Positions 35,501 to 61,649 of a stretch of 64,000 nucleotides of DNA are shown one piece after another. Position 1 is the first letter of the stretch. The number at the start of each line of letters is the position of its first letter. The stretch lies in the IMG/VR virus record IMGVR_UViG_3300039355_000083; one strand, 5' to 3'. This DNA comes from a virus. A program made the translations under genes and the position numbers. Below the pieces are notes generated by a model. It was given only the letters and a program-made list of their open reading frames with translations. It had not been told where the DNA came from and did not search any database.

Positions 35501-36062
35501 TTATTTCGAGGAGTTTGGAAAAAATCAGTATTTGATGCAAGTATCCGAGATCTACGACAAATTTGCTTTATGTAAGATTATCAGTAAAAAAAAGATGGAA
35601 AGTCTTGGCTTGACAGAGTATCTGATGAAGAAATATGCCGGGAAAGAGACTGCTTCTCAATATAGGGATTTGGATAATACAGGTCTTATAGCTGAGTTAT
35701 CTAGTCGTTTAGAAAATAAAGCAATGTCTGTTATTGATCAGGTGAAGTTTGAAAAAGAATATCTTCAGTATGTTGTATATGTGAATCCAAAAGTAAATCA
35801 ATGTTTTTATGTCGTGACAGATTATAAAACTTTCAAGGAAGTCAGAAAACCATATTGTGTATTGCATAATATTAAAACTGGAGAGGACGTAAAAGCAAGA
35901 GTAACCAGTATTAAAGTATATCAAGATAATCCGTTTGGTGAATTTTCTATTTTGAAAGTCCCACACTTTACAAAGAAAAAGAAGAAAAAATGTGTGAATG
36001 GAACATGGCAGGAAACAGATGAACTTGAAAATATACTTGATGAATATGAAGTAATTAAATAG
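32553..36062 (+). CDS. DNA polymerase III alpha subunit (PHP + DnaE-type polymerase core)
   Basis: 1169 aa. N-terminal PHP 'YHCHSNRSLLDS...LTEHGN' and polymerase core motifs ('GPCRGSVGGSTVAYITDI', 'PAGIVVSP'). Confidence 0.8.
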   Translation: MGQYTIYHCHSNRSLLDSCTGYKEYADRVSELGYKALALTEHGNAYNWVEKKMYINSKGLKYIHGVECYLTASLGEKVRDNYHTILLAKNYEGVKEINLLIDKSTQPDHRYYKPRITFEEFFNISDNVIKISACLASPLNKYPKDVQKQIAEKSAVLKQELANKVAELEKQKSDQKAMIKWFKQFDDFKEEELPWVINGCIPGDSYLHYIEAQIDKLKQYYDNLLEEVQLMNVTARETFYKLLETYDYYEIQPHDFPEQKRYNEFLYAASKQTGKPLIAGTDTHSIDYYKAECRSILQKAKRIEYADEDKFDLTLKTYEELVEMFRVQNCDIPFDVILQAIENTNVMADSVTDFKLDTSVKYPKLYDNEEEVLKKRIFDKLHEKIDAGIIKKKKIPEYVKRIKEEMRVFKKINMIGFMLFMSELVCWCWENGIPVGPCRGSVGGSTVAYITDIIDVDPVIWNTIFSRFANEDREEVGDIDLDISPDQRELVYNHIIESFGYDKTAYILAIGTVSDKGTIDEIGRALDIPLDEVAHIKEMYSAYKDTIESTGKRIKEIEDMIHFDEIKQADKESEYYGLRRDYENKITERDKAIKQMNDLKDNQYRKLFYYFDGINGTPVSQSIHPAGIVVSPVTLPDNYGTFWNDGKRIMCINMEEIHDGAGLVKYDLLGLKNLEIIRKCYEYAGLPYPKSHQINWNDKKVWNDIVLCPAGVFQFESPYAYEMLKNYGPQCINDLSMINASLRPSGASYRDRLLAGETNKNPSPLIDELLKDNRGFLIFQEDTIKFLQNICGLSGSAADNVRRAIGRKQMDRLQKALPDILNGYCKMSSQPREIAEKEARAFLQIIEDSANYQFGYNHSTGYSMIGYMCAFCRYYYPEEFIAAYLNCANNTDDILMGTELAKIKNIEIKNIKFRKSGAEYTVDKANHALYKGIASIKFCNAQIADDLLELATNRYNNFTEVLADVNTKTSVNSRQLTILIGLNYFEEFGKNQYLMQVSEIYDKFALCKIISKKKMESLGLTEYLMKKYAGKETASQYRDLDNTGLIAELSSRLENKAMSVIDQVKFEKEYLQYVVYVNPKVNQCFYVVTDYKTFKEVRKPYCVLHNIKTGEDVKARVTSIKVYQDNPFGEFSILKVPHFTKKKKKKCVNGTWQETDELENILDEYEVIK

Positions 36063-38368: not shown

Positions 38369-39138
38369 AGTCAGAATTATTTCAGAATGAATTAAAAACG
38401 ATTCAATCAGACGATATCCGTGATTTTGCAAAAGTTGTCTTGGATGATGCTCCTGACTATTTTTTCAAGGTTGCGGCGAGTTCTACAGGTAAATATCACC
38501 CGGCATATGCGCTGGGTGATGGAGGTTTAATGCGCCATACTAAAGCAGTATTAAGGATTTACAACTATATCATCGGATTAGAACAGTACCAGAATCAGTT
38601 TGATGAGAGATGGATAGATCTTGGACGTGTTGCTTGTTTGGCACATGATATTCAAAAGTCTGGTACTGCAGAAACATATGAAGAAAAGGCAAAGGATGGA
38701 AAAAAGGTGTTTACTGTATTTAATCATCCGTTGTTGGCAGCAGAATATATTCGTAATTATAAAGGATTATATCTCGAAGATGATGAACTTGAGATTATTG
38801 CTGATGCTGTTTCGTCTCATATGGGACAATGGAACACAAGTGATAGAGAAAGTATTGTCTTACCAAAGCCAAAATCACAGTTAGGGAAAATTGTACATGT
38901 AGCAGATTATTTGGCTTCCAGAAAAGACATTGATATTTCTTTTAAAGATGATACTGATGCATATGATTTACCGGATATTGAGACATACAAATGTCCATAC
39001 AAAAAGCATAAGGATGAATTACTGACAGATGTTGCAAAGACAGATCCTGAGTATCTGGAGTGGCTACATGAAAATGTTAATATGAGAGAACCTATGAAAA
39101 CATTCGTAAATGAACTTTTAAAAAATAAAACAAATTAA
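38365..39138 (+). CDS. HD-domain phosphohydrolase
   Basis: HD motif 'ACLAHDIQK' plus conserved His ('KYHPAY', 'SSHMGQW'). A (d)NTP/nucleotide hydrolase is plausible. Confidence 0.55.
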   Translation: MKSELFQNELKTIQSDDIRDFAKVVLDDAPDYFFKVAASSTGKYHPAYALGDGGLMRHTKAVLRIYNYIIGLEQYQNQFDERWIDLGRVACLAHDIQKSGTAETYEEKAKDGKKVFTVFNHPLLAAEYIRNYKGLYLEDDELEIIADAVSSHMGQWNTSDRESIVLPKPKSQLGKIVHVADYLASRKDIDISFKDDTDAYDLPDIETYKCPYKKHKDELLTDVAKTDPEYLEWLHENVNMREPMKTFVNELLKNKTN

Positions 39139-39229: not shown

Positions 39230-39982
39230 ATGAAAGTGACCCTTACAGAAATGCACTCAATAAGAGATGCAATCAGAACAATGTACATGAGCAAAAGAAC
39301 ATGGAATGGAGAGATAGAGCAGCAACTCAAAGAAATGGTAGATCATTGCACAGATCGTTATGGGAGGCCATTAGATCTGCCAGAGGATGATGAATTAAAA
39401 ATTAAATTTGACAAAGAAGTAGCAAAACTTCTTAAATGGGGACAAAAGCATATCACAATGCTGCGATTTGAAGATATTTCAGTTGTTGTAGAAGGTCTTC
39501 ATAGAGGAGCAACCGACGATCTTGACTCACACGCAAAGAGAATGGATAACAGAATTATTCGTAGCAGTACAAGGCTTGCAGATTACCATGAAGGAGAAGT
39601 TTCTGAATGGTACGAAGATAAAATTATTACATGGGATGAAGTATTAAAATATCTTGGTACGAAAATTCCTGGTGAGATTAGTTATTATGGTGATACTTAT
39701 GTAAGGTCAAATAATGGTTTCATCAAAAAAGGATTAGAAAATAATAAAGATGTAAAACGTGGTTTATATCCACTGGCAATTCCCATGAATTTTACTTTCA
39801 AAATAAATATTACTGAATTAGCGCATATTTATGTTGAGAGAGGATCAAAAGATGGTGGCGCTCATGGAACAGCTGCTCCGGAGCTTCAGATCATGATTGA
39901 AGATTTAATTAATCAGATTGAGTCTTGGTATCCGGGAATTAATAGAGAATTACTTTTAAAGATTGCGAGCAATAATGTATGA
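39230..39982 (+). CDS. flavin-dependent thymidylate synthase ThyX-like
   Basis: N-terminus 'MKVTLTEMHSIRDAIRTMYMS' resembles the ThyX start (V.L...T...E..I..AAR.CY.S) and the size is about 250 aa. Embedded in a nucleotide module. I did not see a clean RHR...S.R motif, so this is tentative. Confidence 0.45.
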   Translation: MKVTLTEMHSIRDAIRTMYMSKRTWNGEIEQQLKEMVDHCTDRYGRPLDLPEDDELKIKFDKEVAKLLKWGQKHITMLRFEDISVVVEGLHRGATDDLDSHAKRMDNRIIRSSTRLADYHEGEVSEWYEDKIITWDEVLKYLGTKIPGEISYYGDTYVRSNNGFIKKGLENNKDVKRGLYPLAIPMNFTFKINITELAHIYVERGSKDGGAHGTAAPELQIMIEDLINQIESWYPGINRELLLKIASNNV

Positions 39983-40209
39983 ATGTATATTTTGCAAACG
40001 GAACTAATATTATAGTTGGATGCGATAATGAAAAAGATAGTTATTATTTTTGCCAGAAAGATGGTAATGAGTGCTGCAAGAAAGATACTTGCAAAAGATT
40101 TCTTGATTCAGATGGCAATGTAAGCACAAGACTTTTTAAGATTATGTGTAATGATGAAAATCATCACATCTTATATATACCGGAAAGGAATGAAACAAAT
40201 AATGCATAA
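39979..40209 (+). CDS. small Cys-rich protein
   Basis: 76 aa with 'CDNEKDSYYFCQKDGNECCKKDTCK'. Confidence 0.4.
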   Translation: MNVYFANGTNIIVGCDNEKDSYYFCQKDGNECCKKDTCKRFLDSDGNVSTRLFKIMCNDENHHILYIPERNETNNA

Positions 40210-40774
40210 AAAGTTAGTATTTTTATTTATTGGAAGAACCGCTTCTGGTAAATCATCGCTTGCAAGATATATATGCGAGACATTAGGACTTCGACAGGTA
40301 AAAAGCATTACAACAAGACTGCCGCGCAAAGATGAAATAACAGGATATGAAGATCATTACTTTGTATCTGAGAGTGAATTCGATGAAATTAAATTTAAAG
40401 AAGGCTTTGTAGCGTATACTGAAATTAACGGAATTAAATATGGCACTACATATAATGAAATTGTGAATTCCGATATTTATGTAATTGATCCGAACGGAGC
40501 AAAGTATTTGAAAAAACATTGCAAAGATGAATTTAAATTTATCGAGATTTATTTTTCTTCACCATTTGAATTAGCAAAAGACAGGTTCCTTAAAAGAGAT
40601 GGATCAGAAGAAGAATTTTACTCCAGATATAACAGTGAAGATGAACAATTCACTAAATATGAAGAAGCTGAAGGGTATGACCACTTATTTGTGAATGATA
40701 TGAGCTTTTCGAAAGCTGCAGAAGCATTATGTGACTTACTTAAGAGTGAAATGGAAAAGGAGAAATCGTTATGA
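40202..40774 (+). CDS. guanylate kinase-like (d)NMP kinase
   Basis: P-loop 'GRTASGKSS' and GMK signature 'SITTRLPRKDEITGYEDHYFVSESEF'. Start chosen at the internal ATG to avoid overlapping the preceding ORF. Confidence 0.65.
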   Translation: MHKKLVFLFIGRTASGKSSLARYICETLGLRQVKSITTRLPRKDEITGYEDHYFVSESEFDEIKFKEGFVAYTEINGIKYGTTYNEIVNSDIYVIDPNGAKYLKKHCKDEFKFIEIYFSSPFELAKDRFLKRDGSEEEFYSRYNSEDEQFTKYEEAEGYDHLFVNDMSFSKAAEALCDLLKSEMEKEKSL

Positions 40775-42948
40775 ATGTAGTTAAAAAGGATTTAACAGTT
40801 GAACCTTTTAACGATCAGAAAATTGTTGATGCCGTAAATAAGTCAGCATCACGAGTAATGGTCGAGTTGACAAATGATGATTATAAAAGAATTATAGATC
40901 TTGTTTGGGACGAGCTTATTGCTGATGATATAGATGAAAATACCACATGTACAGTAGAAGAATTACATAATGCAGTAGAATCCGCATTGGATGAATTTAA
41001 TCCAAAGATTGCAAAGTCTTATAAAGATTATCGTAATTATAAGAAAGAATTTGTTCATATGATGGATGACGTTTTCACCAAGAGTCAGGCAATCCGTTAT
41101 ATTGGTGATAAGAGTAATGCCAATACAGATAGTGCGCTTGTAGCTACAAAGCGAAGCCTGATCTTTAATGAACTGAACAAAAACTTGTATAGAAAATTCT
41201 TCATGACAAGAGATGAATTACAGGCATGCAAGGACGGATATATTTATATTCATGACCAGTCTGCCAGACTTGATACTATTAACTGTTGCTTATTTAGAGT
41301 TGGAGAAGTTATGAAAGGCGGCTTCGAAATGGGAAATGTCTGGTATAACGAACCAAATTCTCTTGATACTGCGTTTGATGTTATGGGTGATATTATCTTG
41401 AGCACTGCTGCACAGCAGTATGGCGGATTCACAGTACCGGAAGTAGACAAGATTCTTGCACCTTATGCAGAAAAAAGTTATCAGAAATATTATAAAGAAT
41501 TTTTTGAAGTTTTTGATTCCGATATTGATGGTGTTTATGTTGATGTTTTTTCAACATCAGAACATTTGATTGAAGAAAAAGCTTGTGAATATGCAACAAA
41601 TAAAGTAAAACGTGATTTTGAACAGGGCTGGCAGGGAATTGAATATAAGTTAAATACTGTAGGATCATCAAGAGGTGATTATCCATTTGTAACAATGACA
41701 TTCGGTCTCTCAACCACAAAATTTGGTAAAATGGCTTCTATTACATTCTTAAATGTTCATAAAGAAGGCCAAGGTAAGGCCGGTAATAAGAAACCTGTGT
41801 TATTCCCCAAATTGGTATTTTTATATGATGAGAATTTACATGGACAAGGAAAGGTTAATGAAGATGTATTTAATGCAGGCATTGAATGTAGTATGAAGAC
41901 AATGTATCCAGACTGGTTATCATTAACAGGGGATGGATATGTACCAAGTATGTACAAAAAATATGGTACGGTTGTTAGTCCAATGGGGTGTCGCGCATTC
42001 TTAAGTCCTTGGTATGAAAAAGGTGGAATGGAACCGGCGGATGAGAATGACAAAGCAATTTTTGAAGGACGTTTCAATCTTGGTGTTGTAAGCCTTCATC
42101 TTCCAATGATTTTGGCAAAAGCGCAGCGTGAAAGTAGAGATTTCTATGAAGTATTGGATTATTATCTTGAGATGATACGTAGCATTCATAAGAGAACATA
42201 TGACTATATTGGTGAAATGAAAGCTAGTACGAATCCATTGGCATACTGTGAAGGTGGTTTCCTTAATGGTTATTTAAAACCAGATGAAAAAATACGTTCA
42301 ATTCTTAAACCTATGACTTTATCATTTGGAATTACTGCTTTGAATGAATTGCAGGAACTTTATAATAAGAAGTCATTAGTTGAGGATGGTAAGTTTGCTG
42401 TAGATGTAATGAAATACATTAATAAAAAGATTACTCAATTTAAACATGAGGACGGATTATTATATGCGATTTATGGAACTCCGGCCGAGAGCCTTTGCGG
42501 GCTTCAGGTAGAACAATTCCGTAAGATGTATGGCATTGTGAAAGGGGTTTCTGACAGAGAATATGTGAGCAACAGTTTCCACTGTGGAGTGTGGGAAGAT
42601 ATTACACCGATTCAGAAGCAGGATTTAGAAAATAGATTCTGGGATCTGTTTAATGGAGGCAAAATTCAATATGTTCGGTATCCAATCAATTATAATCGTG
42701 AGGCCGTAGTTACATTAGTTAGAAGAGCCATGTCTTTGGGATATTATGAGGGAGTAAATCTTTCCCTTGCTTACTGTGATGACTGCGGGCATGAGGAACT
42801 TGAGATGGATGTGTGTCCGGTCTGCGGTTCCAAGAATCTGACAAAGATTGACCGTATGAATGGATATTTGTCTTATAGTAGAGTCCATGGAGATACACGA
42901 TTAAATAAAGCGAAGATGGTTGAAATCGCAGAGAGGAAATCAATGTAA
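40771..42948 (+). CDS. nrdD: anaerobic ribonucleoside-triphosphate reductase (class III RNR)
   Basis: N-terminal ATP-cone, 725 aa, and C-terminal Zn ribbon 'CDDCGHE...CPVCGS' followed by the glycyl-radical region. Immediately followed by the activase. Confidence 0.8.
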   Translation: MNVVKKDLTVEPFNDQKIVDAVNKSASRVMVELTNDDYKRIIDLVWDELIADDIDENTTCTVEELHNAVESALDEFNPKIAKSYKDYRNYKKEFVHMMDDVFTKSQAIRYIGDKSNANTDSALVATKRSLIFNELNKNLYRKFFMTRDELQACKDGYIYIHDQSARLDTINCCLFRVGEVMKGGFEMGNVWYNEPNSLDTAFDVMGDIILSTAAQQYGGFTVPEVDKILAPYAEKSYQKYYKEFFEVFDSDIDGVYVDVFSTSEHLIEEKACEYATNKVKRDFEQGWQGIEYKLNTVGSSRGDYPFVTMTFGLSTTKFGKMASITFLNVHKEGQGKAGNKKPVLFPKLVFLYDENLHGQGKVNEDVFNAGIECSMKTMYPDWLSLTGDGYVPSMYKKYGTVVSPMGCRAFLSPWYEKGGMEPADENDKAIFEGRFNLGVVSLHLPMILAKAQRESRDFYEVLDYYLEMIRSIHKRTYDYIGEMKASTNPLAYCEGGFLNGYLKPDEKIRSILKPMTLSFGITALNELQELYNKKSLVEDGKFAVDVMKYINKKITQFKHEDGLLYAIYGTPAESLCGLQVEQFRKMYGIVKGVSDREYVSNSFHCGVWEDITPIQKQDLENRFWDLFNGGKIQYVRYPINYNREAVVTLVRRAMSLGYYEGVNLSLAYCDDCGHEELEMDVCPVCGSKNLTKIDRMNGYLSYSRVHGDTRLNKAKMVEIAERKSM

Positions 42949-43475
42949 TGAATTATCACGATATTAAACATGATGACATGAACAATGGACCAGGATTAAG
43001 AGTCACGCTTTTTGTTTCCGGTTGTGATCATTATTGCAATGGCTGTCAAAACCCGGAAACATGGGACACCAAATCTGGAATTCCATTTGATAATACAGCA
43101 ATAGAAGAGATTTTTAAACAGCTTGATAATGATTATATTTCTGGAATTACTTTTTCTGGAGGAGATCCGTTAAATGAAAATAACAGAGTTGAAGTTTGTA
43201 ATTTAATAAGTAAAATTAAATCAAGATATGGTAATTCTAAATCTATTTGGATTTATACTGGATACACTTGGAATGAAATTATAGAAGAAGCATTTCCTAT
43301 TTTAACAGATATTTTGTTAAATACAAATGTAATTGTAGACGGTATGTTTCAGAAAGATTTGGCAGATGTAAATTATCATTGGGCTGGATCAACTAATCAA
43401 AGAGTAATTGATGTGCAGAGATCACTCGAAGAGAAAAAGATCGTTCTGTATAAAGATGACATTAATAATGATTGA
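42948..43475 (+). CDS. nrdG: anaerobic RNR activating protein (radical SAM)
   Basis: 'GCDHYCNGCQN' CxxxCxxC radical-SAM cluster motif in a 175-aa protein. Translationally coupled to nrdD (ATGA overlap). Confidence 0.8.
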   Translation: MNYHDIKHDDMNNGPGLRVTLFVSGCDHYCNGCQNPETWDTKSGIPFDNTAIEEIFKQLDNDYISGITFSGGDPLNENNRVEVCNLISKIKSRYGNSKSIWIYTGYTWNEIIEEAFPILTDILLNTNVIVDGMFQKDLADVNYHWAGSTNQRVIDVQRSLEEKKIVLYKDDINND

Positions 43476-46641: not shown

Positions 46642-47394
46642 TTGGGGATCACGGACATGATTTGGGTAACTGGAGATACGCATGGGGATTGGATCCATAG
46701 AGTTAATATGGATTCTTTTCCCGAACAGCGTGAGATGTCGAAGGACGATTATGTGATAATTCTTGGAGATTTTGGGATATGGAGAGATTCACCGCAGCAA
46801 AGGTGGTACCTGAATTGGCTTGAAGAGAAACATTTCACAACACTCTTTATTGACGGAAATCATGAGAATTACGATATATTAGATTCTTATCCGGTAGAAG
46901 AATGGCATGGTGGTAAGGTGCATTTTATTAAACCATCGATAATTCATCTTATGAGAGGACAGGTATTTGATATAGACGGATTAAAATTCTTTACCTTTGG
47001 AGGAGCTTCAAGTCATGATATTTCAGATGGAGTATTAGAGATTGACGATCCAAGAGTAAAAGAATGGAGGGATGATCCGGATAAAATGTACCGAATCAAT
47101 CATATTTCATGGTGGGAACGAGAAATGCCAAATCAAGAAGAGATGGATGAGGGTATAAAGAATCTGGCAGAACATGATAATAAAGTAGATTTTATCCTGA
47201 CACATTGTACAGCTTCTTCTACAGCAGCATTATTATCACATGGATTATATAAGCCAGATAAGTTAACTAATTATTTTGAAGAAATAAGGTGCAATGTTGA
47301 TTATAAGCGTTGGTTGTGTGGACATTACCACGACAATAAAGCAATAACAATAAAAGATATAGTTCTATATGAACAGATTGTGAGGATCGCATAA
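46642..47394 (+). CDS. calcineurin-like metallophosphoesterase
   Basis: Motifs 'GDTHGD', 'GDFGIW' and 'GNHE' of the binuclear metallophosphatase fold. Confidence 0.7.
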   Translation: MGITDMIWVTGDTHGDWIHRVNMDSFPEQREMSKDDYVIILGDFGIWRDSPQQRWYLNWLEEKHFTTLFIDGNHENYDILDSYPVEEWHGGKVHFIKPSIIHLMRGQVFDIDGLKFFTFGGASSHDISDGVLEIDDPRVKEWRDDPDKMYRINHISWWEREMPNQEEMDEGIKNLAEHDNKVDFILTHCTASSTAALLSHGLYKPDKLTNYFEEIRCNVDYKRWLCGHYHDNKAITIKDIVLYEQIVRIA

Positions 47395-47856: not shown

Positions 47857-48213
47857 ATGCCGGAACGTAACAGAGGGTATTTGAGAAAGCAAAGACTACG
47901 AAATATTGAACGTAGAAAAAAATTAATAAGTCAACGAGAACTTATGTATCATGGATATAAAACTTTGAACGATCCTGATTTTAAAGAGGGGATGTTACAT
48001 AAAGGACACAGTGGACGACTTGGCATGGGTGGAACTGCAGTAAAAACTAATACTCGTAAAGGACATGCTTCATATCGACATAAAGGTGCTTATGGTCCAG
48101 CAGATAATTATTCAAGACATGATAAGCAGCAAGTTGAAGATGGAGCACAGCAAATTAAAGAATGGGAGAATAAAAATGAAAAAAGAGAAAAAGAAAGTTC
48201 TGATTGTGATTGA
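47857..48213 (+). CDS. hypothetical basic protein
   Basis: 118 aa, K/R/H/G-rich. Confidence 0.4.
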   Translation: MPERNRGYLRKQRLRNIERRKKLISQRELMYHGYKTLNDPDFKEGMLHKGHSGRLGMGGTAVKTNTRKGHASYRHKGAYGPADNYSRHDKQQVEDGAQQIKEWENKNEKREKESSDCD

Positions 48214-48727
48214 TGTACAGAATGATTTTGTAACCGGTTCACTTGGTACACCGGAAGCCCAAGCTATTATTCCGAATGTAAAAGAGAAATTTGATGAATA
48301 TAAGAATAATAAGAACTATGTAATTCTTACAAAGGATACTCATCATTCAGATTACGCAGATACTTCAGAGGGCAGAAAACTTCCTGAACATTGTATGTAT
48401 GGTACTAAAGGTTGGGAAATTGTTGATGAACTTGATTATAAAAATCTCGATAGTTTTATGGTATGTTGTAAATCTACTTTTGGATTTGATGACTGGAATT
48501 GGGAAGAAATATTTAATACTACAGATGGTTCTTTATTAGATATTGAAATTATTGGCATATGCACAGATATCTGTGTTATTACGAACGCTCTTTTGATTAA
48601 AACTTATTATCCAGAGGCAAAAATCACAGTTGATGCATCATGCTGCGCAGGATCAACACCGGAAAAGCATAAAGCGGCTCTTGATGTAATGGAAAGCTGC
48701 CAGATTAATGTAATCAATAGAAATTAA
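48176..48727 (+). CDS. pncA: nicotinamidase/pyrazinamidase (isochorismatase fold)
   Basis: 'KKVLIVIDVQNDFVTGSLG' is the canonical PncA N-terminus (catalytic Asp). The Cys-containing C-terminus 'GICTDICV' is present. Start moved to the ATG with RBS GGGAGAA. Confidence 0.75.
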   Translation: MKKEKKKVLIVIDVQNDFVTGSLGTPEAQAIIPNVKEKFDEYKNNKNYVILTKDTHHSDYADTSEGRKLPEHCMYGTKGWEIVDELDYKNLDSFMVCCKSTFGFDDWNWEEIFNTTDGSLLDIEIIGICTDICVITNALLIKTYYPEAKITVDASCCAGSTPEKHKAALDVMESCQINVINRN

Positions 48728-48735
48728 ATTAAACA

Positions 48736-49374
48736 ATGGAGGGAATTAAAATGATGAATAATTTTATGAATGGAATGTTTGGAAAAATCGGTAGTGGAAT
48801 GTGCAAGTTATCCATGAGCGGTAATATTGCGGTAAAAACTTCTAATGGATATAAGAGTTACAATGTTAAATCCGGCAAGCTCACAAACTGTGGCAATTTC
48901 GTGTTTCCTGGAGTAGATGAAAACTTTTTCTTCGTCATTCCTACAAATAAGGTAACTAAAGGAGATATTATCCTTGTAAATGGCAAACCTAAGTGCGTCA
49001 TCGAAGCAGATAAAACAAAGATCACTGTAATTAATTATGAGGACTCTACAGTTGAAACAATCCTGCCGGAACGCCATGTATTTATGGGCAATACTTATTT
49101 CTATGGGAAAATTGTATCGATGTTCGGAAGTAATCTTGGAAAAGATAAGAATAGTGCAAACAAAATCTTTAAATATATGATGATGTCTCAGATGATGAAT
49201 GGAGCAGCCGGTACCGGAACTGGAACTGGAACGGACAACAATCCGATGAATGCTATGATGCCATTTATGATGATGAGTGGAGGTATGGGAGATGTATTTG
49301 ACGGTATGTTTGATTTTAGTATTGATGATACAGATGCAGAAGATAGTGAAGATGATTTAGAGGAGGATGAATAA
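48736..49374 (+). CDS. Met/Gly-rich protein with acidic tail
   Basis: 212 aa with M-rich low-complexity tracts ('MMMSQMMNGAAGTGTGTGTD...PFMMMSGGMG') and a D/E tail. Confidence 0.4.
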   Translation: MEGIKMMNNFMNGMFGKIGSGMCKLSMSGNIAVKTSNGYKSYNVKSGKLTNCGNFVFPGVDENFFFVIPTNKVTKGDIILVNGKPKCVIEADKTKITVINYEDSTVETILPERHVFMGNTYFYGKIVSMFGSNLGKDKNSANKIFKYMMMSQMMNGAAGTGTGTGTDNNPMNAMMPFMMMSGGMGDVFDGMFDFSIDDTDAEDSEDDLEEDE

Positions 49375-49376
49375 TT

Positions 49377-50276
49377 ATGGGATGTGGAAGTTGGGATACT
49401 AGAAGTTTTGTAAGTTATTCAACATCAAAAGGATATGACACTGATTCACGAGGAGTAGTTACAGGAAGTTATTCTAATCAGGAAATGTTTAAAGCAAAAA
49501 ATATTGATGCAGCACTCGATCCTAAAGGTGTTATTAGAGAATGTTGTGATAATGAAGAGCATCCGAATACTTTACCAGTTATTTTAGCTTTGGATGTCAC
49601 AGGATCTATGGGACAGACCGCAGTAGAAATTGCAAAAAGACTTAATGAAATCATGACAAAATTATATGGTCAGATTAAAGATGTAGAATTTATGATTATG
49701 GGTATTGGTGATTTAGCATATGATAATTATCCAATTCAGGCATCACAGTTTGAATCCGATATTAGAATTGCGGAGCAGCTTGATAAAATCTATTTTGAAT
49801 TTGGCGGCGGAGGTAATTGTTTCGAGTCATATACTGCTGCTTGGTATTTTGGATCTCGTCATACAAAACTTGATTGTTGGAATAGGGGTAAAAAAGGCGT
49901 AATTATCACAATTGGGGACGAACGTCTTAATCCGTACTTACCAGTATCAGGACGACGCTCTGGATTAGGAATTACAACTGGCGATACGCTTCAGGCCGAT
50001 GTAGAAACTAAAGATTTATATATGGAAACATCTGAGAAATTTGATATTTATCACATTAATGTAAATCATCGTGATGGATATGACCAGAGAGGAATAGTTG
50101 AGTCTTTTTCAGAGTATCTTGATGATAATCATTTTAGGACCATTAATCGTCTTGATGATATTGCAGATGAAATTGTAAAGATTGTAGTTGCGGCTGCAGA
50201 AAATAATGAACCTGTAGTAGTCTCATCCACTGTAATTTCTGCAGAGACAGATGAATCAGGAGCTATTGTTTGGTAA
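49377..50276 (+). CDS. von Willebrand factor A (vWA) domain protein
   Basis: MIDAS-like 'LALDVTGSMG' plus downstream 'GGGN' and 'TIGDE'. Confidence 0.6.
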   Translation: MGCGSWDTRSFVSYSTSKGYDTDSRGVVTGSYSNQEMFKAKNIDAALDPKGVIRECCDNEEHPNTLPVILALDVTGSMGQTAVEIAKRLNEIMTKLYGQIKDVEFMIMGIGDLAYDNYPIQASQFESDIRIAEQLDKIYFEFGGGGNCFESYTAAWYFGSRHTKLDCWNRGKKGVIITIGDERLNPYLPVSGRRSGLGITTGDTLQADVETKDLYMETSEKFDIYHINVNHRDGYDQRGIVESFSEYLDDNHFRTINRLDDIADEIVKIVVAAAENNEPVVVSSTVISAETDESGAIVW

Positions 50277-50288
50277 GGAGAATAACTT

Positions 50289-51392
50289 ATGAAAGATATA
50301 AAAATTGTCATCGGAGCAAACTTTGGTGACGAGGGCAAGGGCAAATTAACAGATTATTATACTAAAAATGCAGATAACTGTATCGTTGTGTGTTCAAATG
50401 GCGGTGCCCAGAGAGGACATACAGTATTAAAATCAGATGGAACCCGGCATGTCTTTCACCATTTCGGCTCTGGAACATTAAACGGAGCAGATACTTATTT
50501 ACCGGAGGATTTTATTTTAAATCCTCTGGTATTTAGGGAAGAATGGGAAGAGTTGAAGAAATTAGGATGGGAACCTTATGTGTACGTTCATGAACAATGT
50601 ATGATTACGAATCCTCTTGATATGATGGCAAATCAAATTATTGAGCGAAGTCGCGGTAATAATAAACACGGAAGTTGTGGAATGGGTATTTATAATACCA
50701 TTCAACGATATAAAAAGCATATTGATTCATATTCATTATCATGGACATATTATATGAACATGTTCAAAAACATGGGAATTACGTTATCTGAGCAGGAAGA
50801 AGAATTATTTCATCCCGTAAAAAATCCTGGGCTTCGAGACCATTACAATGAAGATCTTGATTTTATGATGTCTCATGTACATGTTGTAAATAATATTCAA
50901 TTACTACTTAATGGATACGACACCATTGTGTTTGAAAATGGTCAGGGGCTTCTTTTGGATCAAAATAATACTGAATATTACCCACATCTTACACCATCAA
51001 ATACTGGTATTAAGAATCCTGCCAGAATTATAAAGGCTATAAGATGGACTGATGAAATTAATATAGAAGCTTGTTATGTGACACGTACATATATGACGCG
51101 GCATGGAGCCGGTGCGTTCCCAACTGAATGTAATAAGGAAGAAATTAATCCGGACATCAAAGATTTAACCAATGTTCCAAATCCACATCAGGATACTTTG
51201 AGATATGGGAAGTTAAATGTTGAAGAACTATATGAAAGATGTCAAGCAGACATAATAAGTGCAGGTTTTCCGTGTCAAAAAACATTGGCTATAACTCATT
51301 TTAAAGAATATTGGGAGCCAGTTGCACTTATACGTGAAACGTTCAAGAAAAGTAACTGGGGATTTAGTATTTTTCATAAGGAAGAGAATTAA
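50289..51392 (+). CDS. short adenylosuccinate synthetase homolog (PurA-like; PurZ candidate)
   Basis: P-loop 'GANFGDEGKGK' and 'GGAQRGHT' match the PurA catalytic motifs. At 367 aa it is nearer archaeal-type PurA/PurZ than the ~430-aa bacterial PurA. Confidence 0.65.
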   Translation: MKDIKIVIGANFGDEGKGKLTDYYTKNADNCIVVCSNGGAQRGHTVLKSDGTRHVFHHFGSGTLNGADTYLPEDFILNPLVFREEWEELKKLGWEPYVYVHEQCMITNPLDMMANQIIERSRGNNKHGSCGMGIYNTIQRYKKHIDSYSLSWTYYMNMFKNMGITLSEQEEELFHPVKNPGLRDHYNEDLDFMMSHVHVVNNIQLLLNGYDTIVFENGQGLLLDQNNTEYYPHLTPSNTGIKNPARIIKAIRWTDEINIEACYVTRTYMTRHGAGAFPTECNKEEINPDIKDLTNVPNPHQDTLRYGKLNVEELYERCQADIISAGFPCQKTLAITHFKEYWEPVALIRETFKKSNWGFSIFHKEEN

Positions 51393-51667
51393 ATTGAATA
51401 AAGTAAAAGAACAAATTATGCAATTATCACAAAAACCAGAATGTATAGATTTAATGCTGCATGACGATTTAAAAGACGATTATTCTTTCAGAACAAATAT
51501 TCAAGATATAGCATCTTTACTGAGTGGGATATTAAATATTATGCAGCAAGCAAATCTTACTGATAAAGAGCTTGCCGAACTAGAACAATTATATAATGAA
51601 AGATATGAAACTAATAAGTCTGGATTGGGAACCAGTAACTGTATTACATGGTAGAAAGGTGATTTGA

Positions 51668-52471
51668 ATGATTAAATTAAACGACGTAGAAATCAAACTT
51701 GATAAATATCCGGATGGAACATTCTTATTTAAGGATATTCCTCCTATTGGCGGATGGCACAGAGATAATATTGAATGGTTCTTTGAATCAATGGAAGAGT
51801 TAACAGCAGTTGAATATATTACTAGATATTGTTGGGATCATAGAGTAGTGCCTAATTTATATATGCCTTATATCCCAGATGCACGTATGGACCGAGTTAA
51901 GCATAAGAACGAATTATTTACTTTAAAATATTTTGCTCAGACTATTAATTCATTACATTTTGGAAAAGTAGAAGTTTTAGATCCGCATTCTGATGTATCT
52001 GCCGCATTATTTAATAAAGTACATGTAGAATCCCCGAATCGAATGATTGAGGATGCTGTTAAGAAGATTGCGAGTAATAACCTTATGATGTTTTATCCGG
52101 ATGCGGGATCCATGAAGCGATATTCTTCAGCAGTACATCTTCCATATGCTTTCGGTATTAAGAATAGAGATTGGGAAACGGGAGAGATTAAAGGTTTAGA
52201 TTTATCAGGTGAAATTGATCAGTTACCAGGTAAAGATATCCTTATTGTAGATGATATTTGCAGCAGAGGCGGAACTTTTTATCACAGTGCTAAAAAACTG
52301 AAAGAGGCCGGTGTAGGTAAGATTTATCTTTATGTAACTCATTGTGAAAACACTATTTATGAAGGAGAACTTCTGAAAAATAATGGATTAATTGAGAAGA
52401 TTTATACGACAGATACGATTTTGACAAATCTGGAAAGTCCTAAGATTGAATTGGTTGAGAGGTTTAGATAA
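51668..52471 (+). CDS. ribose-phosphate pyrophosphokinase-like PRTase (Prs/Adps-like)
   Basis: PRPP-binding motif 'ILIVDDICSRGGT'. The 267-aa length is that of the short Prs-like enzymes that accompany phage NadV genes. Confidence 0.65.
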   Translation: MIKLNDVEIKLDKYPDGTFLFKDIPPIGGWHRDNIEWFFESMEELTAVEYITRYCWDHRVVPNLYMPYIPDARMDRVKHKNELFTLKYFAQTINSLHFGKVEVLDPHSDVSAALFNKVHVESPNRMIEDAVKKIASNNLMMFYPDAGSMKRYSSAVHLPYAFGIKNRDWETGEIKGLDLSGEIDQLPGKDILIVDDICSRGGTFYHSAKKLKEAGVGKIYLYVTHCENTIYEGELLKNNGLIEKIYTTDTILTNLESPKIELVERFR

Positions 52472-53714: not shown

Positions 53715-55190
53715 ATGAATAATACTTTAGCAATTTTACTTTCAGATACATATAAACAAATTCATAATAAAATCTATCCAAAAGGATTAACAAAACTTGT
53801 TTCCTACTGGACTCCACGACGATCAATGCTTAAGAATCAGAACAAAATGGTTTTCTTTGGTTTACAAGCATTTATTGAAGAATATCTGGTTGACTATTTC
53901 AATGAAAATTTTTTCGAGCTAACAGCAGTAGAAGTTGAGCATACATATAAATACAGTATGGATATACAGTTAGGAAATAGTTATGACCTAGAGCCTATTA
54001 TGAAACTTTATAAATTAGGTTATCTTCCAATTCAGATACGTGCTATCCCGGAGGGAACATTAGTACCAATGGGCATTCCATGCATCGAGATTACAAACAC
54101 ACATCCAGATTTTGCTTGGGTAGTACAGTGGATAGAATGTATCCTGCAGGTTGAACTCTGGAAACCATGTGCTCATGCAACAATTAGTCATATGTATAGA
54201 GAACTTGCAAACAACTACTATAAAATGACTTGTGATGACTTTTTAAGACCTGAAATGGCATGCTCAGACTTTGGTATGAGAGGAATGTCTTGCATGGAAG
54301 AGGCAGTAAGATGTTCATCTGCTTGGTTATTATCATTTGATAAGACAAGTACAATTCCGGCCATTGATTATATAGATACGTATTATGATGCTTGCTGTTG
54401 GACTAAAAGAATCGGAATTGGTGCTGTATCAACAGAACATTCAGTTATGGCTTCAAATTATGCAGTAGACGGTGATGAAATCACATTTGTAAAAAGACTA
54501 CTTACGGAACTATATCCTAATGCATCTTTCAGTATGGTATCTGACACTTATGATTACTGGAATATGATTGATAATATTCTTCCGGCTTGTAAAAAAGAAA
54601 TCATGCAGCATAATGGTAAACTTCTGGTTCGTCCAGATTCCGGAGATATGGTAGAAATTGCTGTAGAGACAATTGAAAAGCTTTGGAATACATTCGGCGG
54701 AACAGTAAATAGCAAGGGATATAAAGTGCTTGATCCGCACATTGGAATTATTTATGGGGACGGATGTACTCTTAATAATGTAAAGCAGGTATGGGAAAAA
54801 CTGAAGAAAAAAGGATTTGCTGCAAACAATATCGTATTCGGAGTCGGAGCATTTTGCTTCTCAGCAGTTATAGAACCCGATGGACATATGGTTGTTGTAA
54901 CCAGAGATATGTTTGGTATTGCTATGAAAGCCACCTATGGAATTGTCAATGGCGAGCCAATTATGATCTATAAAGATCCAAAAACCGATACGAGTCATTT
55001 GAAAAAATCTCATAAAGGGTGTTGTTGTATATATTACGATGACAATGGAGAATTACAGTGTGAAGACGGGTATAATGATGTATTTCGTGACGGAGCGTTA
55101 AGTACCGTATTTGTAGATGGGAAAGCTTGCAATAAAGAAACATTTGAAGACATTAGAGAAAGATTAAACGGAGGAAACAAAGATGAGTAA
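53715..55190 (+). CDS. nadV: nicotinamide phosphoribosyltransferase (NAMPT/NadV-like type II PRTase)
   Basis: N-terminal 'ILLSDTYKQIHNKIYPKGLTKLVSYWTPR' parallels NAMPT 'ATDSYK...YP...VYSYFECR'. 491 aa. Confidence 0.7.
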   Translation: MNNTLAILLSDTYKQIHNKIYPKGLTKLVSYWTPRRSMLKNQNKMVFFGLQAFIEEYLVDYFNENFFELTAVEVEHTYKYSMDIQLGNSYDLEPIMKLYKLGYLPIQIRAIPEGTLVPMGIPCIEITNTHPDFAWVVQWIECILQVELWKPCAHATISHMYRELANNYYKMTCDDFLRPEMACSDFGMRGMSCMEEAVRCSSAWLLSFDKTSTIPAIDYIDTYYDACCWTKRIGIGAVSTEHSVMASNYAVDGDEITFVKRLLTELYPNASFSMVSDTYDYWNMIDNILPACKKEIMQHNGKLLVRPDSGDMVEIAVETIEKLWNTFGGTVNSKGYKVLDPHIGIIYGDGCTLNNVKQVWEKLKKKGFAANNIVFGVGAFCFSAVIEPDGHMVVVTRDMFGIAMKATYGIVNGEPIMIYKDPKTDTSHLKKSHKGCCCIYYDDNGELQCEDGYNDVFRDGALSTVFVDGKACNKETFEDIRERLNGGNKDE

Positions 55191-55671: not shown

Positions 55672-56622
55672 ATGAATTTACAAAGTATTAGTAGATATAT
55701 AAGTCTTATATTAAGACATAAGCCTGAAGTTATTGGTATTACTATAGATGAACATGGTTGGGCGAATGTAGAAGAACTGATTCAGGGTATCGCTAAAAAC
55801 AATCCCGGATTCAACAAAGAATTTTTAGAGGAAATTGTACGGACTGACAATAAGCAGCGATATTCTTTCAATGATGACAAGACATTGATCAGAGCGAATC
55901 AGGGACATTCAATTCCGGTAGATGTAGAACTGGAAGAGAAAGAGCCACCTAAAATTCTTTATCATGGAACTGGCGAGAAATATATAGCGTCTATTGATCA
56001 GAATGGACTGATTCCTAAAAGTCGTTTATATGTTCATTTGTCAAAAGATGTTGAAACCGCCAAAGCTGTCGGCAAGAGACATGGTAAAGAAGTTGTTTAT
56101 TCTATCAATAGTGAACAGATGTACAAAGATGGATACAAATTTTACTTATCTAAAAATGGAGTTTGGCTGACTAAAAGGGTTCCAGTGAAATATTTAATGA
56201 AGGAAGGTATAAAAATGAGTAGTACATATTTTACGGATTCAGTTTCAGATCTTTGTCAGGGGATTGTTGATAAAGCAGATACTTATGAAAAACGAATTAA
56301 ATACTTAGAAGAAGAAAACAAGAAGCTCAAAGATGAGCATTATAAAGATTCTGAAATGCAGAGAATGGAAGCAGAACTGAAAAAAGCGAAAGAGGATCTG
56401 TATAGAGGATTTCCAATTTCAGAAAAAGAACAAGAGAAAATCAGAGAGTGGGAATTAAAACATGATGCTGAGAAACATGGTTTGAAAACTATGGAACAGA
56501 GAGCAATGGGACATGGTTGCATAGGCGGCTCTCTTACATGGTGCTTTACACCAACATCAATCGGAACTATTGGAGAAGTGATTTGCTCCTGTGGCGAGAA
56601 GTTTACATTTCAGGATTTATAG
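55672..56622 (+). CDS. kptA: RNA 2'-phosphotransferase Tpt1/KptA with C-terminal coiled-coil/Cys extension
   Basis: Tpt1 signature blocks '[27 protein letters not shown]', 'IRANQGHSI' and 'LYHGT'. Confidence 0.75.
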
Positions 56623-56632
56623 GAAAAGATTT

Positions 56633-57133
56633 ATGATTAAAATTATTGAAGGTAATATCGTTAATGCAAAGACAGATTTTATAATTCATCAGGTTAACTG
56701 CCAAGGAGAAATGAACACTGGAGTCGCTAAAGCATTAAGAGATTATGATGAAGGCATTTATAAACACTATAGAAAGTTTTGTGAGTTTTGTAAGTTCGAG
56801 TCGGAAGAACTACTCGGAACGTGTGATGCATATTTATTGAAAGATAGAGGTCAAATTGTATTGTCTTTATTCGCACAAAATAAATATGGATATGATGGTA
56901 AACAGTATACAGATCTTGAAGCTTTTAGATATGGTTTAAGATATATTTCGCAACATTTTGGAGTATGGCGTGAAAAAAATGGACTAGAAGGAAAAGATCT
57001 TTGTAGAACTTCAGTAGCACTTCCGTATAAGATTGGTTGTGGAAGAGGGGGAGCAGACTGGGAAATGGTTTATAAAATCATTGAAGAGGAACTTAAAGAT
57101 TATGATGTGGAATTATGGAGGCTGGATGAATGA
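56633..57133 (+). CDS. macro domain protein (Poa1p-like, ADP-ribose/ADP-ribose-1''-phosphate processing)
   Basis: 'IIEGNIVNAKTDFIIHQVNCQGEMNTGVAKAL' and 'IGCGRGGADWEMV' match the macro-domain ligand-binding loops. Start moved to the ATG at 56633. Confidence 0.7.
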   Translation: MIKIIEGNIVNAKTDFIIHQVNCQGEMNTGVAKALRDYDEGIYKHYRKFCEFCKFESEELLGTCDAYLLKDRGQIVLSLFAQNKYGYDGKQYTDLEAFRYGLRYISQHFGVWREKNGLEGKDLCRTSVALPYKIGCGRGGADWEMVYKIIEEELKDYDVELWRLDE

Positions 57134-57555
57134 GCGAGGCGATGAATATTATTATAGCCGGTTCACGAGATTTTGATGATTATCGTTTGCTTAAGAAAAC
57201 TGTGTCAGATTATATCGAAGAGAATCAAGTTAATAACACTCAGCAAATTAGAGTTATCAGTGGTGGTGCAAAAGGTGCAGATAGGCTTGGTGAATGTTAT
57301 GCGTTTGATAATGGTTACTCCGTTATAAGATTTCAAGCGTTATGGGGAGTTTATGGAAAGTCTGCTGGCCCTAGACGTAATAATGAAATGGCAAAATTTG
57401 CATCAGAATCAGGCTCTGGTACGTTGATCGCATTTTGGGATGGTGAATCGCGAGGTACAAAAAATATGATTGATACTGCAAGAAGATATGGATTACATGT
57501 AATTGTAGTTGAATATGAAAAAGATTCGGAGGAATTAAATGAACAGAAAAGATAA
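57130..57555 (+). CDS. SLOG-superfamily (DprA/LOG-like, DUF2493-type) nucleotide-binding protein
   Basis: 'IIIAGSRDF...ISGGAKGADRLGE...IAFWDGESRGTKNMI' fits the SLOG Rossmann-like signature common in phages. Confidence 0.55.
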   Translation: MSEAMNIIIAGSRDFDDYRLLKKTVSDYIEENQVNNTQQIRVISGGAKGADRLGECYAFDNGYSVIRFQALWGVYGKSAGPRRNNEMAKFASESGSGTLIAFWDGESRGTKNMIDTARRYGLHVIVVEYEKDSEELNEQKR

Positions 57556-58238: not shown

Positions 58239-59000
58239 ATGAAATATTACGATGGATATTTTAAAGAACTCAAGAATGAAATTGTACAGTGGATCAGAGA
58301 CTGGTTCGATCAGAATGGTCCCGGCTGCAATGCAATTGTAGGAATCTCTGGTGGAAAAGATTCTTCCGTAGTAGCAGCGCTTTGTGTAGAAGCTCTTGGA
58401 AAAGATCGTGTAATTGGTGTACTAATGCCACAGGGTCAGCAGAAAGATATTTATGCTGCGTACAAGCTTTGTGAATTTCTTGATATTAAATCATACGAAA
58501 TCAACATTAGCGACACAGTTCGAAGTGTATTGTCAAGACTCGAAAGCTCAGGAATCGAGATCAGCGAACAGACAAAAATAAATCTTCCGGCACGTATTAG
58601 AATGTCTACATTATATGCTGTCTCTCAGTCTTGTAATGGAAGAGTAGCAAATACATGTAATCTTTCAGAATCATATGTCGGTTATGAAACCAGGTATGGT
58701 GATTCGGCAGGTGATTTTAGTCCGTTAGGAAAATTAACTGTATATGAAGTTAAAAAACTTGGATATGAATTATTGCTTCCTACAGAACTTATTGAAAAGA
58801 TTCCAATTGATGGATTATGTGGAAAGACAGATGAGGACAATTTAGGATTCCCATATGAAGTTCTGGACAGATATCTTCGTACAGGAGAGATTGACGATCT
58901 GGCTGTAAAAGCTAAGATTGATTTAATGCATAAACGATGTCTCTTCAAATCAGAGAAGATTCCGGTATTTAATCCTGAATTAAAAGTGGAGGCAGAATAA
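58239..59000 (+). CDS. nadE: NH3-dependent NAD+ synthetase
   Basis: PP-loop 'GISGGKDSSVVAAL' and NadE-like C-terminus ('LGFPYEVLDRYL'). 253 aa. Confidence 0.65.
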   Translation: MKYYDGYFKELKNEIVQWIRDWFDQNGPGCNAIVGISGGKDSSVVAALCVEALGKDRVIGVLMPQGQQKDIYAAYKLCEFLDIKSYEINISDTVRSVLSRLESSGIEISEQTKINLPARIRMSTLYAVSQSCNGRVANTCNLSESYVGYETRYGDSAGDFSPLGKLTVYEVKKLGYELLLPTELIEKIPIDGLCGKTDEDNLGFPYEVLDRYLRTGEIDDLAVKAKIDLMHKRCLFKSEKIPVFNPELKVEAE

Positions 59001-60439: not shown

Positions 60440-61116
60440 TGAAATATAAAGGTACTTACAGACTAAAAGCTGCGATAGATCAAAGTACCAATGATTATCC
60501 CAGAGATGATTCTGGAGGAATAGATCCAAGCTTTGATGATATTTATATTAAGTGTTATGGCGGCGCTCAAATATATCATTATGGGTTTTCTACTCTTGTA
60601 GCTTACATTCCATCTATAGGAAGAGGACACAATATTTTAAAAGCTATAGCCAATGATCTCGGATTACCGGAATATGAAACTTATGCAGAATTATACAAGG
60701 CACTTGAAGATGAAGGAACTGTACGAAGTATCATGGAAAACGACAAAGAAATAGAGTTTAAGTTCCATGCTCGTAAGTTAGAATACATAGCACTTTTTCT
60801 TAAACCTGCGATTGCAGGAGCTGATATTAGTCCTTTCTCGACTAAGAACTTACCCAAATGTGATTACCCTATTTCTGAGGAAGATTTAGCAGAATACAAC
60901 GCTATTTTGGATTCTATGGACAGTAAGGATTACTTGTTAGTCTCTAGGGTAACTGATGCTTTTTTGACCAATAAACTTCAAAAAAGTAAGCAGTATAGGA
61001 CAATTGATTTGAAAAAAGATATGAAGAAAAAATGTTTAAAAACTAAAGAATATATCCATTCATTAGGCGAATGGAATGAATATATTGAATATTTAAAAAA
61101 GGAGATTTGTAAATGA
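60424..61116 (+). CDS. hypothetical protein
   Basis: 230 aa ORF. Confidence 0.45.
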   Translation: MAKYLMKYKGTYRLKAAIDQSTNDYPRDDSGGIDPSFDDIYIKCYGGAQIYHYGFSTLVAYIPSIGRGHNILKAIANDLGLPEYETYAELYKALEDEGTVRSIMENDKEIEFKFHARKLEYIALFLKPAIAGADISPFSTKNLPKCDYPISEEDLAEYNAILDSMDSKDYLLVSRVTDAFLTNKLQKSKQYRTIDLKKDMKKKCLKTKEYIHSLGEWNEYIEYLKKEICK

Positions 61117-61649
61117 AAAGAATAGCAAAGTTTGAAAAAGTGAGCTTAGAAGAATTCATGAAAGATTGGTGTGATACATTCGAATTAGACGCCTCTGATG
61201 CTGACACGAGACGTGAAATAGAAGGCATTTATGGTAGTATTGAACTTCCTAAAAGAGCAACAGTAGGAAGTGCCGGTTATGACTTCTTCACACCGCTTAC
61301 ACTTAATATGAAACCAGGTGAAACAGTAAAAGTGCCAACTGGAATTAGATGTAAGATTGATGAAGGATGGGTACTGAAATGCTATCCAAGAAGCGGCCTT
61401 GGATTCAAATACCGTCTGCAGCTTGATAATACAGTAGGTATCATCGACAGTGATTACTATGATTCTGATAATGAAGGTCATATCTTTATTAAAGTTACTA
61501 ATGATAGTAAAAGACCATGGAAAACTCTTAATGTACTTCGCGGAGAAGGATTCGCTCAGGGTATTTTTGTTGAATATGGTATTACTATTGATGATGAAGC
61601 TGCAGGAGTACGAAATGGCGGATTTGGAAGTACAACAGAGAATAAATAG
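61113..61649 (+). CDS. dut: dUTP diphosphatase
   Basis: dUTPase motifs 'GSAGYDFF', 'PRSGLG', 'GIIDSDYYD' and a C-terminal 'RNGGFGSTT' (motif V). Confidence 0.8.
   Translation: MKRIAKFEKVSLEEFMKDWCDTFELDASDADTRREIEGIYGSIELPKRATVGSAGYDFFTPLTLNMKPGETVKVPTGIRCKIDEGWVLKCYPRSGLGFKYRLQLDNTVGIIDSDYYDSDNEGHIFIKVTNDSKRPWKTLNVLRGEGFAQGIFVEYGITIDDEAAGVRNGGFGSTTENK

Follow-up and report, generated by a model that had tools for sequence, protein, structure and literature searches.

In a 64,000-nucleotide stretch of viral DNA from the IMG/VR record IMGVR_UViG_3300039355_000083 (the window, to which all positions refer unless another locus is named), we found that the gene at 50289..51392 on the plus strand belongs to a widespread, undescribed branch of proteins derived from PurA. 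The gene encodes a PurA-like ligase of 367 amino acids (aa) with an ATG start and the adenylosuccinate synthetase fold (phrog_1211), and the branch is defined by a residue signature of its own and by a partner gene that encodes a vWA protein. Family membership, residue pattern, gene linkage and gene context were observed directly. As our best, although still tentative, explanation, we propose that the PurA-like protein may be the catalytic part of a cassette, composed of either a gene called u212 or a J-domain/kinase-like gene, followed by a vWA/MIDAS gene and the PurA-like gene. In this cassette, a repurposed purine-nucleotide ligase would use an amine other than aspartate, with its vWA partner, and would be tied to NAD+/ADP-ribose turnover.

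The PurA-like open reading frame (ORF) is a real gene and not a chance ORF because it has thousands of homologs (5230 word-indexed homologs at E ≤ 1e-10), its family comprises 2257 clusters at 50% identity (E ≤ 1e-30), and its AlphaFold model is confident (pLDDT 94.3, pTM 0.93). The softest stretch of the model is limited to residues 291–300, which form the rebuilt loop described below. A preliminary description, made from the DNA letters alone, had recorded a 367-aa ORF at these coordinates with GDEGKGK and GHT motifs, and we reproduced all of this: GDEGKGK occupies residues 13–19, and R-G-H-T occupies residues 42–45. The same description had judged the protein to be about 60 residues shorter than bacterial PurA; the measured difference from E. 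coli PurA (432 aa) is 65 residues.

The fold is clearly that of adenylosuccinate synthetase, as would be expected of a canonical PurA, and the protein matched PurA chains in the PDB with E = 5e-17. The Pfam family PF00709 (Adenylsucc_synt) was matched with 132 bits, with residues 6–285 aligned to profile positions 1–280 of 416 only. However, the protein reached about a quarter of the curated cutoffs for canonical PurA, falling below the threshold of every equivalog model: 106.8 bits against 402 for NF002223, 90.3 against 395.6 for TIGR00184 and 57.3 against 368 for the archaeal-type NF003295.

Residue conservation was assessed in an alignment of 150 mutually divergent family representatives, with positions given in E. 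coli PurA numbering unless the window's protein (the query) is specified. The catalytic core was kept in the query and across the family, with the P-loop, Asp13, Gly40-His41-Thr42, Gln224, Leu228 and Thr239 invariant; in query numbering, D14, H44 and Q219 were each present in 150 of 150 representatives, and G-D-x-G-K-G was invariant as well. In contrast, the residues that we take, from structural and mutational work by Honzatko and Fromm, to recognize L-aspartate in E. coli PurA (V273, T300, T301 and R303) have all been exchanged. V273 is His in all 150 representatives (H272 in the query), T301 is Gln in all 150 (Q301), T300 is Phe, Tyr, Trp or His across the family (H300), and R303 is Ser or Thr (T303). 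Further, T129 is replaced by Cys in 140 of 150 (C130 in the query) and N38 by Gln.

The elements that presumably recognize guanine in E. coli PurA, again from structural and mutational work (K331, D333 and the S414–P417 loop), have been altered too. The preliminary description had seen no clear (N/T)KxD motif, which agrees with the alignment: T336-H-F-K339 of the query lies opposite T330-K-L-D333 of PurA, so that K331 and D333 are His and Lys, respectively. The D333 position is split across the family (Asn in 75 of 150, Asp in 70 of 150), and the S414–P417 loop is deleted in the window's clade. R305 is kept in 144 of 150 representatives. The resulting family signature consists of GSCG (with Cys at T129), TRHG (with His at V273) and N-x-x-N-x-[FYWH]-Q-x-x-x-R, and the query carries it in full (C130, H272, N295, N298, H300, Q301 and R305). 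As judged from this pattern, the rebuilt amine sub-site represents conserved remodelling and not decay. By the same comparison, the protein is distinct from canonical PurA, as represented by the E. coli enzyme (1ADE/1CG0) and the short archaeal enzyme of P. horikoshii (5K7X), from which the family differs at V273, T300, T301, R303, T129, N38 and K331/D333 and in having an obligate vWA partner gene. The fallback of the preliminary description, a repurposed purine enzyme or PurA paralogue beside an NAD island, was therefore borne out in part: a repurposed enzyme with NAD genes on both sides fits our results, whereas a plain PurA paralogue does not because the aspartate and guanine determinants have been replaced.

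The second defining feature of the family is the partner gene at 49377..50276 on the plus strand, which encodes a 299-aa vWA/MIDAS protein of phrog_2971 (function unknown) whose N-terminal Met-Gly is invariant. The partner has a vWA alpha/beta fold with a conserved MIDAS-type site (D-x-S/T-x-S, a Thr-equivalent loop and D), and its family shares the motif Q-F-E-x-D-x-R-I. M1-G2 was present in 78 of 78 partner sequences, down to about 27% identity, and positions 6 and 11 are conserved as aromatic; the first 60 residues are conserved, yet were modelled with low confidence when the protein was modelled alone. The two genes lie on the same strand and in the same reading frame, separated by stop codons, with a gap of 12 nt that contains a Shine-Dalgarno sequence (AAGGAG, plus strand, 50275..50280, reading tggTAAGGAGaataacttATG), which overlaps the partner's stop codon and ends 8 nt before the PurA-like ATG. 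Between 47300 and 53800, promoter-like and terminator-like sites were no more frequent than expected from shuffled sequence. Because the Shine-Dalgarno sequence overlaps the stop codon and no promoter or terminator signal rises above chance, the arrangement fits co-transcription and tight translational coupling of the two genes.

The vWA partner is a conserved and obligate linkage of the PurA-like family. Of 82 phage loci, 81 had it immediately 5' of the PurA-like gene, as did all 12 divergent lineage loci (including metagenomic representatives 36–43% identical to the query) and 73 of 80 bacterial-genome loci; in 6 of the 7 bacterial exceptions, the upstream sequence was missing. Rhizobium phage RHph_TM39 (38% identity, E = 2e-46), mycobacteriophage Tonenili (31% identity, E = 3e-40) and Vibrio phage Va1 each have a partner homolog directly 5' of their PurA-like gene. 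In the phage database, both genes occurred in the same 202 Mycobacterium, 10 Rhizobium, 6 Vibrio and 1 Mycolicibacterium records.

The pairing seemed to break down in two loci: in L091, the partner appears to be split or frameshifted (1096-1990, with ORFs of 175 and 97 aa), and in L115 (4937-6627), the PurA-like ORF is truncated, the partner was undetected and an NrtR-like gene is present. Six gut-phage loci (L056, L058, L060, L065, L068 and L069) have ∼1 kb extra between the partner and the PurA-like gene, with an offset of -1934 compared with about -896. When L009, L012, L013 and L018 were compared with the window, partner and enzyme identities were uncoupled (for example, partner 75% and enzyme 89%, or partner 98% and enzyme 87%), which suggests recombination between the two adjoining genes in this phage group.

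The slot upstream of the partner is filled in one of two ways. In the window, it holds u212 (48736..49374, plus strand), which encodes a Met/Gly-rich protein of 212 aa with an acidic tail, matches no Pfam or PHROG family and ends 2 nt before the partner. u212 immediately preceded the partner in 78 gut-phage loci, in L092 and in 14 of 80 bacterial loci. Alternatively, in 46 of the 80 bacterial loci, the slot holds a gene for a J-domain plus protein-kinase-like protein of roughly 340 aa (gp283 in Tonenili), and the two genes were never found in one locus. The HPD motif was present in 35 of 49 of the J-domain/kinase-like proteins; their kinase catalytic motifs are poorly conserved.

A fourth gene was found in bacteria. 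In 41 of the 80 bacterial loci, the cassette is flanked by a gene for an NrtR-family protein (NUDIX plus NrtR_WHD, up to 94 bits), which is divergently transcribed in 18 cases and in which the Nudix box is canonical in only 12 of 41; a NUDIX domain and winged helix with a degenerate Nudix box are, by their sequence features, the signature of a ligand-sensing regulator. The complete four-gene chromosomal cassette (NrtR-like, J-domain plus kinase-like, vWA, PurA-like) was found in Proteobacteria, Acidobacteria, Cyanobacteria-related bacteria, Chlorobiota and Clostridia, as exemplified by L120 (2928-7109), L132 (2980-7302) and L150 (3155-7272) of the bacterial set L094-L173. The bacterial copies were considered as possible prophages, and this was rejected for three isolate genomes (Massilia, Methylobacterium and Rhizobium). 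Because ordinary cellular genes flank these isolate copies, the cassette is a cellular system that is carried by large phages too. PADLOC defence models gave no meaningful match to the phage or bacterial version of any cassette protein.

The NrtR-type regulators are one of two links to NAD metabolism, the other being the genes just downstream of the cassette in the window. A Prs-like protein of 267 aa at 51668..52471 (plus strand), probably the Adps of NARP1, matched phrog_619 ('ribose-phosphate pyrophosphokinase') with E = 2e-69; its match to Pfam Pribosyl_synth was weak, and PRPP synthetases were the only PDB proteins matched (E = 5e-13), Adps and Prs being inseparable by sequence. At 53715..55190 (plus strand), a 491-aa nicotinamide ADP-ribose transferase of the Namat type had 9W5X/9W5W as its best matches among solved structures, with E = 3.5e-117, compared with about 1e-60 for human NAMPT. 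9W5X and 9W5W are structures of phage Namat (PMC12774641). The PurA-like and Prs-like genes are separated by a 78-aa ORF (51418-51654) that matched no family and was present in only 9 of the related loci, and the Prs-like and Namat-type genes by a 156-aa ORF and other small ORFs. The island extends on either side of these genes: an isochorismatase/PncA-like gene lies at 48065-48727, and downstream are a Tpt1/KptA RNA 2'-phosphotransferase (55672-56622, 316 aa, of which the Pfam match covers residues 5–168 only, leaving the C-terminal half unassigned), a SLOG/YAcAr protein (57130-57555) and the NAD synthase NadE (58239-59000).

The proposed tie to NAD+/ADP-ribose turnover follows from these two contexts because NrtR-type regulators accompany half of the bacterial copies and the probable NARP1 pair lies just downstream in the phage clade. 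Independently of the NARP1 genes, the regulators hint that ADP-ribose or a related nucleotide may be what the cassette responds to. The bacterial cassette resembles known NrtR regulons in its neighbouring proteins, which combine NUDIX and NrtR winged-helix domains, have degenerate Nudix boxes and are often divergently transcribed. The described NrtR regulons comprise NAD synthesis and salvage genes, and we know of none that includes a PurA-like/vWA cassette. The PurA-like gene also resembles NARP1 accessory genes such as RyDEP (bioRxiv 10.64898/2026.05.28.727677) in being a phage gene beside Adps/Namat that could feed or support NAD+ reconstitution; however, the fold and chemistry of RyDEP are unrelated to those of the PurA-like enzyme, whose gene adjoins the probable NARP1 pair only in the window's clade.

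We propose the following course for the reaction. The PurA-like enzyme would phosphorylate, with an NTP, the O6 of a 2-unsubstituted 6-oxopurine nucleotide (IMP or a dIMP-like nucleotide); O6 phosphorylation is likely to have been kept because the P-loop, Asp13, Gly40/His41 and Gln224 are all retained, and the intact activation site containing Asp13 argues for a 2-unsubstituted substrate. An amine other than aspartate would then displace the 6-phosphoryl group, jointly with the vWA partner, because the aspartate pocket has been rebuilt with family-invariant residues and the guanine elements are gone in the clade. This would yield either AMP or dAMP directly or an adenine nucleotide substituted at N6. 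The cassette may in this way help to preserve or remodel adenylate/NAD pools when they are being depleted; the chemistry, the substrate and any advantage for the phage against immunity that depletes NAD or adenylates are what we infer from the observed pattern. A role in countering inosine-nucleotide immunity (Kongming dITP or RADAR-type deamination) was also considered as a speculative part of this proposal; the Kongming paper lends it no support, the counter-measure known there being a dNMP phosphatase.

Several observations weigh against this proposal. In the aspartate loop, R305 and N295 persist, and D333 is present in about half of the family; by sequence alone, the enzyme could still use aspartate or GTP. 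The link to NAD is circumstantial, and not every NrtR-family regulator senses ADP-ribose. The Prs/NamPT genes adjoin the cassette only in relatives that share at least 74% identity; in the clade with 58% identity, they are absent or 7–10 kb away, and among the 80 bacterial cassette loci, a Prs-like gene was nearby in 1 and a NamPT-like/Namat gene in none. Prs/NamPT linkage was therefore rejected as a conserved feature, being confined to the window's clade. The NAD setting drawn in the preliminary description, which had not noticed the vWA partner, consequently gains from the NrtR-type regulators beside bacterial copies but loses generality with the Prs/NamPT genes.

The alternative that fares best, although we regard it as unlikely, is an ordinary if divergent adenylosuccinate synthetase (IMP plus Asp plus GTP or ATP), which as an auxiliary metabolic gene product would raise AMP for replication and for ATP-consuming NAD+ reconstitution, with the vWA protein as a regulator or scaffold. 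The fold, the conservation of all catalytic-core residues, R305 (144 of 150) and D333 (70 of 150) are consistent with it, as are nucleotide-metabolism neighbours such as NrdDG in both the window and Vibrio phage Va1 and the label adenylosuccinate synthetase given by database annotators. Scores far below every PurA equivalog cutoff (107 versus 402, 90 versus 396 and 57 versus 368 bits, rounded) argue against it, as does the replacement of V273, T300, T301 and R303 by other family-invariant residues. Moreover, an obligate partner across four phage lineages and many bacterial phyla would be unexpected for a PurA of the housekeeping type, and bacteria with the cassette would be expected to own a canonical purA as well, which makes a simple duplicate function less likely.

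A protein-directed ligase is similarly doubtful. Here, the activated purine C6 would be coupled to the alpha-amine of the partner's Gly2, after removal of Met, or to another protein amine shown by the vWA/MIDAS protein, giving a protein-nucleotide conjugate. In its most specific form, which we consider improbable, N-terminal purinylation would join the activated C6 of IMP or dIMP to the invariant Gly of the partner and yield a nucleotide-tagged MIDAS protein that acts in NAD/ADP-ribose stress or phage-host conflict. The invariant M1-G2 (78 of 78) and the aromatic residues at positions 6 and 11 would suit such a reaction, and the conserved N-terminal 60 residues, of low confidence in the model of the partner alone, behave as would a segment that becomes ordered upon binding. 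The exchange of aspartate side-chain binders for bulkier His, aromatic and Gln residues, the shortened C-terminal lid and accessory genes of a protein-handling kind (the J-domain and kinase-like domain) point the same way. However, the idea is pure inference: the conserved Gly2 could have another role, protein N-terminal purinylation has no known precedent, and the nucleotide-metabolism neighbours suit a small-molecule role equally well.

We consider it very unlikely that the protein acts as a binder or sponge for nucleotides without catalysing a reaction, or that it is a decayed enzyme with a structural role. Phages often encode nucleotide sponges, and the substrate pocket is unlike that of all characterized relatives, but none of the catalytic residues (Asp, His, P-loop Lys and Gln) varies in 150 divergent sequences, which argues that catalysis is retained.

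Finally, the preliminary description had suggested a PurZ, which would convert dGMP and aspartate into the precursor of dZTP in a phage that swaps A for 2-aminoadenine; we give this practically no weight because the defining residues already contradict it. In a 2026 survey of viral PF00709 proteins, Asp13 was Ser in 100% of 147 phage PurZ/PurZ0 sequences, whereas canonical PurA kept Asp in 99% (PMC12884076). In the alignment to PurZ that the preliminary description had proposed, residue 14 is Asp in the query and Ser in phiVC8 PurZ, and Asp occurs in 150 of 150 family representatives. The NCBIfam PurZ model NF038379 gave 44.7 bits against a cutoff of 300, PDB chains of PurZ matched with E = 0.0036–0.26, and a tblastn search with phiVC8 PurZ did not match the PurA-like ORF at E ≤ 10. 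PurZ/PurZ0 proteins (6FM1, 7ODX and 7VF6) differ further from the family, with which PurZ shares negligible sequence similarity: PurZ has kept the aspartate-type loop, in place of which the family has N-x-x-N-x-[FYWH]-Q, and PurZ travels with DatZ/MazZ/DpoZ or DutZ/DmtZ, whereas the family travels with a vWA partner.

The accessory genes of Z-genomes gave a consistent picture. In the 64-kb window, which represents about a third of a genome of roughly 175 kb, phiVC8 DatZ, p26 (a small, MazZ-like protein beside DatZ) and DpoZ were unmatched (all E > 0.2) in a search limited to these three proteins, so the MazZ/DatZ homologues that the preliminary description had proposed to look for were not found within this third of the genome. 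The replicative polymerase of the window is of the PolIII-alpha type. The HD-domain protein at 38365-39138, which had been suggested to be DatZ-like, was rejected as a DatZ analogue (E = 0.86 against DatZ). Even if an accessory gene sat outside the window, the PurZ reading, and with it a Z-genome, is refuted as far as protein comparison can decide because the defining residue test fails regardless. The HD-domain protein itself, a member of phrog_5889 (function unknown), carries an ExoX-like motif in its C-terminal part and is weakly similar to Cas3-HD models.

With respect to architecture, P-loop NTPases that work with vWA/MIDAS proteins as two-component systems are known from the MoxR-vWA pairs and the I/D subunits of Mg/Co chelatase, to which the cassette may be analogous. 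In those systems, however, the NTPase is an AAA+ remodelling motor, whereas the PurA-like protein, a small-molecule ligase of the SIMIBI class, has kept its purine-activating site intact.

Deposited phages with a family member comprise 202 Mycobacterium phages (cluster C, Bixzunavirus), 10 Rhizobium phages, 6 Vibrio phages and a few uncultured records. The 2026 survey used 'other PurA homologs' only as an uncharacterized outgroup (PMC12884076). We found no publication on the PurA-like/vWA cassette, and the literature on NARP1, its accessory genes, Kongming and Z-genomes does not mention it. The PHROG name '2-aminooxy adenylosuccinate synthetase', which also appears on RefSeq records of cluster C phages, is the product name of phiVC8 PurZ in its record, from which it seems to have spread to the family. 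Hundreds of phage genes and thousands of metagenomic genes that had been lumped as 'adenylosuccinate synthetase', 'PurA-like' or '2-aminooxy adenylosuccinate synthetase' now form a distinct branch, and the residue signature and vWA partner prevent false Z-genome calls.

Our results further define a cassette of three to four genes that is widespread, being carried both by large phages that infect at least four host phyla and by many bacterial chromosomes. Since the core is intact but the aspartate pocket has been remade, the probable activity of the family is a new purine-nucleotide amination, which may act on a protein. The ties to NrtR regulators and to NARP1 suggest that the picture of how cells and phages withstand NAD+/adenylate depletion has lacked a component, and the reaction is experimentally tractable since the family includes easily handled mycobacteriophages and vibriophages.

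With regard to the window itself, a search for near-identical DNA of the region among deposited phages returned zero matches, and a 100% identical PurA-like protein is present on matching IMG/VR contigs of 125–177 kb. The nearest cellular homologs are in Lachnospiraceae, Clostridium and Mediterraneibacter assemblies. Together, these matches suggest a phage of gut Clostridia with a genome of about 175 kb. The remaining genes named in the preliminary description were all located along with the HD-domain gene: PolIII-alpha (32553-36062), a guanylate-kinase-like protein (40151-40774), NrdD (40771-42948), NrdG (42948-43475) and dUTPase (61113-61649). A 250-aa ORF at 39230-39982 is possibly a divergent flavin-dependent thymidylate synthase (ThyX), with only a sub-threshold match of 21.9 bits against a cutoff of 24.8.

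Some further features recur around the cassette in other lineages. In Vibrio phage Va1, the PurA-like gene is preceded by NrdD/NrdG at a distance of about 4 kb, as in the window, and is followed directly by an Rv2179c-like 3'-5' exoribonuclease (L085 9095-9739). A calcineurin-like metallophosphatase is encoded within a few kilobases of the cassette in unrelated lineages (window 46642-47394, L001 306-959, L091 3472-4128, L089 and L092), and in L086 a dual-specificity phosphatase occupies the corresponding place. Between 36 and 64 kb of the window, every listed ORF of at least 200 aa is on the plus strand, whereas the minus strand has only a few listed ORFs, all short and overlapping those of the plus strand. 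The GC content of the window is 30–38%, and its GC skew is positive in every 2-kb bin (0.16–0.37).

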